Assembly: GCA_011364925.1 (NCBI GenBank)
Contig: RDOA01000073.1
Location: 1 to 12,107, forward strand
Length of the DNA stretch: 12,107 nt
Origin: Promethearchaeota archaeon
GTDB taxonomy: Archaea; Asgardarchaeota; Lokiarchaeia; Sigyniarchaeales; SOKP01
Reading direction: 5' to 3'
Part shown: in pieces, positions 5,621 through 9,333 of the stretch
How positions within the stretch are numbered: the first letter of the stretch is position 1
Layout: each line of letters starts with the position of its first letter
Translations under genes and position numbers: made by a program
Notes under the pieces: model-generated
Databases searched by the model: none
What the model saw: only the letters and a program-made list of their open reading frames with translations
Told to the model about the DNA's origin: nothing

Positions 5621-6082
5621 TTACAAATTGTTTATCGCTTTAAATTCAGAACCCCACGAAAATTTTGAGAGAATTAAATCACCATACACATCAAAGTGTG
5701 TAATATAGAGAGCGGCCGCTAACGCTTCTACAGAACTCAATTTCTCCCATTTACCAAAATTTACAGGATTTGCAGCAATAAGTGGAGGAAGCTTTCTACT
5801 GGTCTTCACACTAAACTCTTTTACATTAAAAATTCTTTTCCAAGAACAATCAATAACTACCAACCCATATTTTAAAATTGCATCTCGATCAGTAGCGCTT
5901 AATTCCTCGTTAGAAAACGGATTTAGAAGAATAGCATTAAAGATTTTTCCTTTAATTTCAGGTACAATCTTTATCAAATTTAACTTTGCTAACTTGAGAG
6001 CAGTGCATTTCTTCTTGTCACACTCGTTAAAATGGAGACAAAATAGTTTTGGAAAAGAGCGTTCTGCTTTAGGATTAATCAT
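5621..6082 (-). CDS. tsr3: Tsr3 SSU rRNA aminocarboxypropyltransferase (DUF367)
   Basis: CDKKKCTALKL, DCSW, LPPLIAANPVNFGK...LSSVEALAAAL and FSWG motifs characteristic of Tsr3. Confidence 0.93.
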   Translation of the reverse strand: MINPKAERSFPKLFCLHFNECDKKKCTALKLAKLNLIKIVPEIKGKIFNAILLNPFSNEELSATDRDAILKYGLVVIDCSWKRIFNVKEFSVKTSRKLPPLIAANPVNFGKWEKLSSVEALAAALYITHFDVYGDLILSKFSWGSEFKAINNL

Positions 6083-7073
6083 ATTTAAAACTAGTTAAAA
6101 CATTCACAGACTTAATAAAATTTTCCGTAATCCGTTCAGTTCCTACGATTTTCATTATTGAAAATATGATATTTCTCGATTCACACATTATTGGAATTCC
6201 ACCATATGCCAAAGTAAAAAGTCCAATAAAAGAAATATCTTCTGCATTCAAAGTCCCCTCTACTTCGGAGAATTTGAGTTTTCCCGATGGACTCGTAATG
6301 ATTCCAAAGAAATTCTCGGGATCTTTACCAGAGATCGCAATATAACACAACAAATCACCAATAGAAGTTCCTTCAGACTCCTCCTTCATTTTTTGAAAAG
6401 CTACATTAGCACTCGCAGAAAAAGCTTCAACGGATATTTGGAGATTTTGACCGCTAACCTCCCGTGCATCCAATGTTAAACCTGTCGGACTAACAAGACT
6501 ATATCTTATGAATATAGGATTTTGGAGCGAATCCAAAACATAGCTTATCGCCGGTAATTGGTTAGTAGGGTCAAATTTTTCAGGGGAATACGATATAAAA
6601 GGCACTTCAGACCCCATACCAAAAAGATAGACGGCACTTCGCACTTTATTCGAGAAATCTTCGTAATCTTTTTCTGTTTCGTTATTACTACCGAAAAATT
6701 CTCCAAGCTTTTGTTTTATGTAATACATAGAGCTGGCTAAATTGTCAGCATCTAACGGCCATTCTTTCGTATAATCGTGGACTATCGTTAAAAGTGTTTC
6801 ATTTATTCTAATCGAAATTAAACAAACCTTGTCAAAAAAGGTAAACGATATAACTTGATCTTTAATATCTAAATCTTCCCAACTTTCTTCGCTTGCTGAA
6901 AAAGCTGCTGAAGCTAAACTTGTAATTTGATTAGGATTGATCTCAATATCACTTTTCCTCCCGATCTTTGCGATAGAAAGTCCATTTAAATCGCATAATA
7001 TCACCAAAATCGTACCTTGAGACGCTCTCAAGATCGAAGTCAAATACTTTATTAACGAATCCCTCACACTCAT
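6075..7073 (-). CDS. Tandem Roadblock/LC7 (MglB/LAMTOR-like) domain protein
   Basis: Two repeats of the roadblock pattern helix-strand-'xxG'-strand-helix rich in small residues: 'LVILCDLNGLSIA...ITSLASAAFSAS' and 'YSLVSPTGLTLDA...VEAFSASANVAF'. Confidence 0.75.
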   Translation of the reverse strand: MSVRDSLIKYLTSILRASQGTILVILCDLNGLSIAKIGRKSDIEINPNQITSLASAAFSASEESWEDLDIKDQVISFTFFDKVCLISIRINETLLTIVHDYTKEWPLDADNLASSMYYIKQKLGEFFGSNNETEKDYEDFSNKVRSAVYLFGMGSEVPFISYSPEKFDPTNQLPAISYVLDSLQNPIFIRYSLVSPTGLTLDAREVSGQNLQISVEAFSASANVAFQKMKEESEGTSIGDLLCYIAISGKDPENFFGIITSPSGKLKFSEVEGTLNAEDISFIGLFTLAYGGIPIMCESRNIIFSIMKIVGTERITENFIKSVNVLTSFKYD

Positions 7074-7278: not shown

Positions 7279-7363
7279 GCGGGAATTGCCAAGTCTGGTC
7301 TACGGCGCTGGACTTAGAATCCAGTCTCAGAGGAGTTCGGGGGTTCGAATCCCTCTTCCCGCA
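7279..7363 (+). tRNA. tRNA-Leu(TAG), intronless
   Basis: Acceptor GCGGGAA/TTCCCGC+A73; anticodon stem CTGGA/TCCAG, loop CT-TAG-AA; long variable arm CTC-AGAG-GAG; T-loop TTCGAAT. Confidence 0.97.
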
Positions 7364-7495
7364 TATATTTTTTAGTAATAAAAATAATATTTTTTTAATA
7401 AACCAATTAAATCTAATTCTAATTTAAAAAAATTTAAAATCGAACCTTAATTAGTCTCTTCTATCAAAATTGCTTCTGTAGTGTAGTCCGGCCAA

Positions 7496-7525
7496 TCTTT
7501 CCCGATACGACTTAGAAAGGGCTTG
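7496..7525 (+). other. tRNA-Glu intron 1, position 21/22 (30 nt)
   Basis: Central helix GGCC(7490-7493)/GGCT(7520-7523), bulge AA^T, intron helix CTTTC/GAAAG, 3' site TG^G. Confidence 0.85.
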
Positions 7526-7551
7526 GCATACTAGGCCTTCACCCTGGTGAC

Positions 7552-7581
7552 AATATGGTTCGATGCGAACTGTATCATTAA
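7552..7581 (+). other. tRNA-Glu intron 2, position 48/49 (30 nt)
   Basis: Central helix GGTG(7546-7549)/CATT(7576-7579), bulge AC^A, 10-bp intron hairpin ATATGGTTCG-ATG-CGAACTGTAT, 3' site AA^C. Confidence 0.82.
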
Positions 7582-7658
7582 CCGGGTTCGAATCCCGGCA
7601 GAAGCACTACAGGCATTTTGCATAGGAATTGAAGAGGAGCCTCGATAGCTCAGTTAGG

Positions 7659-7686
7659 TAGAGCACCGCATCGGTGTGCTTGACAA
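7659..7686 (+). other. tRNA-Asn intron 1, D-loop (~19/20; 28-30 nt, boundaries ambiguous)
   Basis: Central helix GTTA(7653-7656)/TGAC(7681-7684), bulge GG^T, intron hairpin AGAGCACCG-CAT-CGGTGTGCT with one mismatch. A 10-nt direct repeat GTAGAGCACC also allows a 30-nt excision. Confidence 0.65.
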
Positions 7687-7702
7687 AGTAGAGCACCCGG
7701 CT

Positions 7703-7739
7703 TTGTAAAATCTTCCATGGATTTACCAATACACCGGAG
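7703..7739 (+). other. tRNA-Asn intron 2, position 33/34 (37 nt)
   Basis: Perfect central helix CCGG(7697-7700)/CCGG(7734-7737), bulge CT^T, intron helix TGTA/TACA, 3' site AG^G immediately before the GTT anticodon. Confidence 0.88.
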
Positions 7740-7765
7740 GTTAACCGGGCGGTCGCATGTTCGAT

Positions 7766-7797
7766 TTGCCATCTGGATTAGTCAGGTGATACGAAAA
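7766..7797 (+). other. tRNA-Asn intron 3, position 59/60 (32 nt), strict BHB
   Basis: Exon helix GCATG/CATGC, central helix TTCG(7760-7763)/CGAA(7792-7795), bulges AT^T and AA^C, intron helix TG-C-CATCTGG/TCAGGTG-A-TA. Confidence 0.9.
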
Positions 7798-8109
7798 CCA
7801 TGCTCGGGGCGTACATTCTTATCTTTTTTATAAACATAGATCTTTCCAAGCTGTAATTTCAACAAGGCTTATATGTTCTTTTTAATCTTCAGTTTTAAAA
7901 AATAAGAAGAAATATACGGTGTTATTAAAAAAACACCGAATTATGGAACAATCCCAGTTTCACCAGGCATTCTATTCCCTCCGATTAATAGTTAAAGGAA
8001 AATTTACTTTCTTTTTTATTTTAGAGTGAAAATGTTCAAAATTTAAGTGTTGCTTAATATTCTATTTTTATCGAATTATTTAAAGTCCGAAATTGTTAGA
8101 ATTTTTTTC

Positions 8110-9333
8110 TTAAATTAAATCAGACGGCAAAATGGGATTAACAAGTAAGTTTCGAAAATTCTTAATTGAAGGTATTTCTCCAAATTTTTGCTTTATAATC
8201 TTAGTTCCAATGTTGTAAGTAAACGCGTTTTTTGAATAAACAGGATTATTTAATCTTTTTATTTGATTTCTAATATCCTCTTTACTGAAAATTTCAAATT
8301 GAGATCCATATTCTAGTAATTTTTTATCAGTGTATTTTTCAATAAGTGCACGATACGCAAAATCATACCAAAAAAGTGAAATTTTATGTCTTATTCTATT
8401 CTGGGCTATTAGAGCTTCAAGAGAGTCTTCTTTTGATGAATTTGGACAAAATTCTCGCAGACTAATTTCTACAATTTCTTGATCAGAAAAAAGAATACTT
8501 AATGCTAGATCAGCAATTCCTTCAGCAATTATTAATTTTGGGCTTTGAAATATTAATAATGAATGCTCAAATTGATTCAATTCGCGATATAACTTCTTTT
8601 CATTTAGAACAAAATGAGTATGATGGCCAGGGTATCCTTCATGAGCAGCACTCGAAAGTAAACTAGTCCAATAAATGCTATAACTAGGATTCACCTCTAT
8701 TCGACTAGTGAAATTACCCAAATACCAATTATAGTAGTTCCATACTATTTTTTGGCTTGATTCATTGTTTCCTACTAGTTCAATCATAATTCTTTCATTT
8801 TCAGGTAAAAGCTTTTGAAATAAATGCTCAGTCTGTTTTTTAACTATTTTAAGAGCTTTTTTGAATAGATGATAAGTTTGGGTCTCGGGAACTTTTCTTA
8901 TCTCTCTTAAATATGCCATTCTTGCTCCCAAATCTTGAAAACCTCCATAAGCCCTATTGAACTCGTATCTTAAGTTTTCAAACTCAGATTCATTAACTGG
9001 TTCTAAAAATGCATCATATAGTCTTAAAAATTGTTCCTCAATAGGCATCTCGATACCTATTAAATTTTCTACAGAAGTTTTTATAGCTGTTAAAAGTTTT
9101 GTTAAGTAGTGTTCTCGTGTTTTCCCATAACCTTGTACTTCCAAATTTTTTATTAAATCATTACAATCATTCAAGAGTTTGTATGGTGATTTCAAAGATT
9201 CATTTTCAACAAGTTTCTTTATTTTTTCTGGACCAAAATAAAAATCTATATATCCCTTAATATGCTTGTCAATTCGAAGTACCAAGAAGAGAAAATTTTC
9301 TCCAAACTTTGAAATTTTTACCATCTTTAACAA
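8110..9333 (-). CDS. DUF885-like zincin metallopeptidase-fold protein
   Basis: 'AAHEGYPGHHTH' plus downstream 'IAEGIA' match the HExxPGHH...EG pattern of DUF885/gluzincin-like proteins. No signal peptide apparent. Confidence 0.7.
   Translation of the reverse strand: MLKMVKISKFGENFLFLVLRIDKHIKGYIDFYFGPEKIKKLVENESLKSPYKLLNDCNDLIKNLEVQGYGKTREHYLTKLLTAIKTSVENLIGIEMPIEEQFLRLYDAFLEPVNESEFENLRYEFNRAYGGFQDLGARMAYLREIRKVPETQTYHLFKKALKIVKKQTEHLFQKLLPENERIMIELVGNNESSQKIVWNYYNWYLGNFTSRIEVNPSYSIYWTSLLSSAAHEGYPGHHTHFVLNEKKLYRELNQFEHSLLIFQSPKLIIAEGIADLALSILFSDQEIVEISLREFCPNSSKEDSLEALIAQNRIRHKISLFWYDFAYRALIEKYTDKKLLEYGSQFEIFSKEDIRNQIKRLNNPVYSKNAFTYNIGTKIIKQKFGEIPSIKNFRNLLVNPILPSDLI

Follow-up and report, generated by a model that had tools for sequence, protein, structure and literature searches.

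In one family of Lokiarchaeia, the intron state of the tRNA-Glu(UUC) gene conflicts with the tree of a neighboring gene. This conflict is new and, as a result of sequence comparison, suggests a lateral exchange of tRNA alleles. The gene from which the comparison starts carries two introns, one of them at the junction between the variable loop and the T-stem (48/49), and it lies in a stretch of 12,107 nucleotides (contig RDOA01000073.1 of the Promethearchaeota archaeon assembly GCA_011364925.1), called here the window. The occurrence of noncanonical and variable-region tRNA introns in Asgard archaea as such is already published (in 2024, PMC11291895; in a preprint, 10.64898/2026.10.13.758758).

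The tRNA-Glu(UUC) gene and its surroundings

The tRNA-Glu(UUC) gene occupies 7472..7606 on the + strand and covers positions 1–73 of the tRNA (CCA is not encoded). Exon 1 (7472..7495) holds positions 1–21; exon 2 (7526..7551), positions 22–48, with the anticodon TTC at 7538–7540; and exon 3 (7582..7606), positions 49–73, with the T-arm and the 3′ strand of the acceptor stem. Intron 1 (7496..7525) falls at 21/22 and intron 2 (7552..7581) at 48/49, both 30 nt long and, like the exons, on the + strand; the numbering of the two sites assumes a variable loop of 4 nt (44, 45, 46, and 48). Excision of 7496–7525 and 7552–7581 leaves a 75-nt molecule with a full cloverleaf, all four stems paired, that is called Glu(ttc) by ARAGORN. 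The two 30-nt introns had been placed at these coordinates in a sequence-only reading, and the placement holds, since the cloverleaf is restored and the orthologs share the junctions.

Position 33 is C (window 7537), where a U is normally near-universal, a point overlooked in that reading. C33 is found in 32 of 133 distinct Glu(UUC) orthologs, for which 15 changes on the tree are needed, and also in Gln(UUG), Gln(CUG), and Leu(GAG) of the same genome. It may be tolerated or edited. Upstream of the gene, an element at 7426..7453 (+ strand), with TTTAAAA at 7433–7439, is conserved in the relatives L161, L175, and L018. From its position and the archaeal promoter consensus, it is likely a BRE/TATA promoter.

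The host assembly amounts to 3.9 Mb (33% GC) in 112 contigs. The window begins with the end of an archaeal 16S rRNA, followed by a tRNA-Ala(UGC) at 231–333 with a 31-nt intron placed at 32/33. The order around tRNA-Glu is a 332-aa gene (6075..7073, − strand), which serves as host marker for the trees, tRNA-Leu(UAG) without intron (7279..7363, + strand), tRNA-Glu, tRNA-Asn(GUU) with three introns in the D-loop and at 33/34 and 59/60 (7639..7811, + strand), and a 407-aa gene (8110–9333). The latter has tRNA-Asn on one side and a Rab-like gene on the other; it is missing at the equivalent place in most relatives and stands upstream of tRNA-Glu in L006 and L109. Among relatives, the region 3′ of tRNA-Glu is highly variable. 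The spacer between tRNA-Glu and tRNA-Asn (7607–7640) is an imperfect inverted copy of the leader and 5′ end of tRNA-Glu (7453–7481), which suggests a local template switch. In tRNA-Asn, a 10-nt direct repeat (7658–7667 and 7688–7697, 30 nt apart) flanks the D-loop intron and makes its boundary ambiguous; that intron looks as if it were the product of a duplication.

Motifs and boundaries of the two introns

In intron 1, the central helix forms between GGCC (7490–7493) and GGCT (7520–7523), with bulges AA^T and TG^G and a 5-bp intron stem. In intron 2, GGTG (7546–7549) pairs with CATT (7576–7579), including two G-U pairs, the bulges are AC^A and AA^C, and the hairpin has a stable 10-bp stem (z = −3.6). 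The GGTG/CATT helix is weak, with a pairing probability of ~0.15 in the precursor ensemble. Each intron combines a complete 4-bp central helix with a 3-nt bulge and, in the intron stem, at least one flanking helix. In both, the first outer pair is mismatched, so that they belong to the relaxed HBh′ class only and not to the strict hBHBh′ one. The earlier description of the motifs, with a central helix, bulge, and hairpin and no outer exon helix, is right in that nothing stacks directly outside. However, at intron 2 a 4-bp ACCC/GGGT pairing (positions 37–40 with 51–54) is possible beyond one U-C mismatch; as it is entirely exonic, covariation cannot probe it.

Four states occur among the orthologs: some carry the two introns, some have just intron 1, L089 has just intron 2, and L025 and L135 have none. 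The junction is always as predicted, intron 1 being missing at the same junction in L025, L089, and L135. As in archaeal introns spliced by EndA, the canonical tRNA is restored and the insert is missing at the exact junction in orthologs. The alternative boundaries 7553–7580, named in advance as the placement that would speak against 7552–7581, disagree with the ortholog junctions.

Inserts at 48/49 among relatives

Within the class, an insert at 48/49 of Glu(UUC) occurs in 35 of 161 genomes and a plain junction in 54 of 161. All 35 genomes belong to three genera of a single Lokiarchaeia family, that of the present host. A general pattern for 48/49 inserts, applied to one genome per species, gave 34 matches, 33 of the Glu(UUC) type, and none that was accepted in archaeal groups outside this family, with the proviso that the pattern is narrow and that such inserts in other tRNAs or other archaea may escape it. 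Matches titled Hod-, Hermod-, or Thorarchaeota are identical in sequence to family members, and their neighbor gene falls inside the family tree. A metagenome search added 68 further loci. Among the orthologs, 21/22 is the commonest intron site of the D-arm.

No 48/49 insert was accepted in Glu(CUC) in the pattern searches, the inserts of the family being all in Glu(UUC). One pattern match in a Glu(CUC) of an uncultured archaeon (L067) was left out, because a 9-nt direct repeat is present there, no helix forms at 48/49, and an intron at 37/38 explains the match better. At this locus (L067:1344-1422), the start of the 40-nt insert repeats the following exon over those 9 nt, which makes it a candidate for an intron born by tandem duplication.

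Of 79 distinct inserts at 48/49, 75 have a wholly paired central helix (mean of 46.9 and maximum of 58 after shuffling); since the inserts share ancestry, such helix and stem counts lend support but should not be read as probabilities. The 48/49 site is shared by at least five intron families, and the letters of the central helix follow the host exon: GGTG/CATT, GCCG/CGGC or CGGT, and CGCG/CGCG. Cross-combined, the halves pair at only 2–3 of 4 positions. The family of intron 2 has 60 distinct members, each exactly 30 nt long. In an alignment of 19 of them, the structure is 91.5% paired versus 24–48% in slid controls, and the intron stem has 11 cells with two-sided changes, a value reached in 1 of 500 shuffles. 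Residues C10, T14, C15, and G16 of the family (window 7561–7567) are almost invariant, although T14 and C15 are in the loop.

History of the 48/49 site

On the tree of the neighbor gene (88 loci), which can only stand in for the species tree, the presence of the intron needs 22 changes, the intron family 26, and the anticodon-stem type 20. Sister loci that are 96–98% alike bear different versions of promoter, introns, and anticodon stem. We lean, by a little, toward a history in which tRNA-Glu(UUC) allele types would have been swapped across species and genus borders through homologous recombination of short tracts at the conserved tRNA exons. An allele type would then consist of the promoter spacer, the D-arm intron, the anticodon stem, and the 48/49 intron, with few types in the family. 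The upstream tRNA-Leu(UAG) is a possible homology arm for such exchange.

A patchy 48/49 site could also come from vertical descent, with one old gain followed by many precise losses and divergence, from ancestral polymorphism, or from mis-joined metagenome contigs; we regard this as possible, but on the doubtful side. Descent would account for the confinement of the inserts found to three genera of one family and to their Glu(UUC), with none in Glu(CUC), and the pairs L052/L053 and L006/L180, which differ by one precise intron, look like cases of simple loss. Loss, however, cannot swap the anticodon stem and the D-arm intron together, as is seen between L090 and L138: the flanks are 99% and 91% alike and exons 1 and 3 are identical, whereas positions 22–48 and all introns differ (39% alike). 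The L090 version is present on two further contigs. Descent is also at odds with the pairs L113/L232 and L189/L142, in which the neighbor gene is 98% alike and the spacer 57% and 66%, respectively, while L113 and L189, with neighbor genes 84% alike, are closer in the spacer (88%) and in the tRNA gene (93%). AU tests reject agreement in both directions (p values of 7e-41, 2e-53, and 4e-4, for groups picked after the data had been seen). As for mis-joining, every genome here was assembled from metagenomes, and tRNA genes, being repeats, are prone to it. Also against this rival reading as a whole, both versions are found in independent assemblies of one clade (L113 and L185 vs. L146 and L232).

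If alleles are exchanged, there is no clean whole-cassette rule, because the spacer is only a slightly better predictor than the neighbor gene: the allele type of the nearest neighbor matches in 47 of 82 cases by spacer and in 43 of 82 by neighbor gene. The clade of the present gene (L001 and kin) looks vertically inherited. A search for a viral donor in IMG/VR, weak since made with two exact patterns, gave no match.

Two further loci deserve mention. In the tRNA-Asn of L090 and L138, the last intron differs in site (T-loop vs. ~63/64) and in sequence, a second swap within 200 nt. The Glu locus L044 groups with another genus, and the genome in which it is binned carries another Glu(UUC) locus (L024) of its own type; L044 is probably a bin contamination.

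The GGTTCGA motif and tRNA finders

Intron 2 does contain, as had been pointed out, the motif GGTTCGA (7557..7563, + strand). It is a 7-base match to the T-arm, of which ~0.001 would be expected in 30 nt by genome frequency, and it had been proposed that the intron derives from a duplicated T-arm with the motif as its relic. Such an origin is now very improbable. The motif, private to this genome, occurs in 1 of the 60 homologous introns, with RGAYCRT as the family consensus at those columns. It is buried in the intron hairpin as its 5′ arm, and a T-stem around it cannot close. When the opposite arm of close relatives is reverse-complemented, the region agrees with it at 10 of 11 bases; no other hairpin of the family is as long (10 bp), and the promoter holds an equally good inverted match. 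GGTTCGA is best seen as a by-product of the perfecting of the hairpin in this lineage, for which template switching would be the simplest reading; the inverted match in the promoter is a possible second template.

The gene is missed by ARAGORN without introns and by Rfam, and ARAGORN with introns miscalls it as His(ATG). The expectation that finders would fail is borne out, but not the cause given for it, a T-loop mimic: the His(ATG) miscall uses the true T-arm, so that the introns themselves are responsible.

Splicing machinery and intron load of the genome

The genome contains two EndA genes and the ligase RtcB. One EndA aligns best to the alpha subunit of A. pernix, with K58 aligned to K44 and with Y141, H149, and K180 kept, which we take, numbering included, to be the catalytic triad. 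The other EndA gene also matches a beta-subunit model. In A. pernix EndA, K44 has the role of the loop lysine, and Asgard EndA has the crenarchaeal loop (PMC5829648). By gene content, the host thus has EndA genes with the loop lysine for relaxed motifs together with the ligase, and the enzyme is predicted to be a two-subunit (alpha-beta)2 EndA with a broad-specificity loop that would allow relaxed motifs.

It is very probable that 7472–7606 is a working tRNA-Glu(UUC) gene, with predicted ordinary EndA splicing through relaxed motifs. The sequences show the inserts, their exact boundaries, the motifs, the covariation, and the enzyme genes; we infer transcription, cleavage, ligation, and their order. 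The gene would be transcribed from its own archaeal promoter into a precursor of 135 nt or more. Each intron would fold into a hairpin and form, with four exon bases, a relaxed bulge–helix–bulge (HBh′) motif; the (alpha-beta)2 EndA would cut in the four bulges, RtcB would join the exons, CCA would then be added, and the product would be a functional tRNA-Glu(UUC). Splicing probably precedes the folding of the anticodon arm, because the 48/49 motif needs positions 42–43 out of the anticodon stem. The introns are best regarded as passengers that the host tolerates, coming and going at 48/49.

That the gene is instead a pseudogene, or that the mature tRNA keeps the 48/49 insert as a long variable arm, would suit the weak central helix and the unusual C33 but is the least probable of the readings, as every stem and every invariant base except 33 is intact, C33 recurs in the Gln and Leu tRNAs and in the orthologs given above, no other Glu(UUC) gene was found in the assembly, and a retained arm would not need a helix that covaries with the exon across families.

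Only two Glu tRNA genes were found in the assembly, this Glu(UUC) and, on another contig, a Glu(CUC) with a 21/22 intron and a plain 48/49 junction; with 112 contigs, a second Glu(UUC) copy could be unassembled. GAA makes up 44,153 of the 58,188 Glu codons in long ORFs. In a census with spliced profiles, 38 tRNA genes were resolved (with Sec, Cys, Ile(GAU), and Leu(UAA) not among them), and 28 of these have introns, mostly of ~30 nt, at sites from 15/16 to 59/60, with some boundaries uncertain and with a partial circularity, since the census was guided by the motif. The sites include 44/45, 45/46 (twice), and 46/47, and, because of this spread, 48/49 is one of many odd sites here. A second copy of intron 1 or intron 2 was sought in the genome and none was found beyond chance matches of 12–16 nt, and the census introns are dissimilar to them. 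Intron copying within the genome, as in Thermoproteales, was rejected because no other tRNA gene has a similar intron. One census match (C40-:14251) is probably a tRNA-Cys, with an insert in its D-loop and a long extra arm, and another (C64+:6532) is probably a tRNA-Sec that bears an intron.

Comparison with known systems

With this gene, a known pattern gains a well-supported intron site where the variable loop meets the T-stem. The census shows the Lokiarchaeia to be intron-rich too, and the case explains how such genes come to be missed or miscalled by finders. The suspicion that 48/49 is not a commonly recognized site agrees with its absence from the positions in PMC4090602 (a partial list) and with the lack of matches outside one family. 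It was not found as an intron site in the literature searched, the SPLITSdb and GtRNAdb catalogs lying outside that scope. In Supplementary Data 4 of PMC11291895 (coordinates only, compared by eye), no row is clearly at 48/49, the tails being ambiguous from the handling of CCA.

The comparative result outweighs the gene itself. Goswami et al. 2026 (bioRxiv 10.64898/2026.10.13.758758) describe repeated gains in a catalog of 90 Asgard genomes that takes in variable-region insertions. In its main text, that preprint gives no general route of arrival, which it names as the central open problem and on which the present comparison bears; recombination and horizontal exchange are nowhere mentioned there, nor are Lokiarchaeia or an individual 48/49 site named. 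Going by that main text, exchange between species is a route that the preprint did not test. If true, exchange would give Asgard tRNA introns a way into and out of lineages, independent gains would be overcounted, and 48/49 would stand as an unlisted site with at least five intron families. The sister loci with swapped tRNA middles make this route directly testable.

In Atabey- and Freyarchaeia, tRNA genes are intron-rich with noncanonical sites (PMC11291895). As in the published Asgard introns (PMC11291895 and the main text of 10.64898/2026.10.13.758758), there are here several short introns per gene at noncanonical sites of the D-arm and variable region, with BHB-type boundaries, repeated gain and loss, an (alpha-beta)2 EndA, and genes that finders miss. 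Unlike here, the focal families in those texts are Freyr-, Jordi-, and Atabeyarchaeaceae.

The pre-tRNA-Glu(UUC) of Methanopyrus kandleri (Kaneta et al. 2018, PMC5829648) is of the same isotype and also has a relaxed HBh′ intron in the D-loop, which is cut efficiently by EndA with the crenarchaeal loop (PMC5829648). Its second intron is at the canonical 37/38 (PMC5829648), whereas here neither is canonical and one is at 48/49. Multi-intron tRNAs of Thermoproteales (Sugahara 2008; Fujishima 2010; both as cited in PMC4090602 and PMC4033280) likewise have noncanonical sites (45/46, 53/54, and 59/60 among them) and relaxed motifs. According to the same two secondary accounts, similar introns recur there in different tRNAs of one genome; here, in contrast, the genome holds no second copy, and homologs are found only in the orthologous gene of other species. 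In the tRNA-Thr(GGU) of Caldiarchaeum subterraneum (Sugahara et al. 2012, PMC3293823), introns likewise differ at one locus among very close relatives. A recombinase-bearing insertion with a tRNA fragment is described there (PMC3293823), whereas here no viral copy was found and the swapped tract goes down to positions 22–48. For the heterogeneity in C. subterraneum, recombination was proposed as the cause (PMC3293823).
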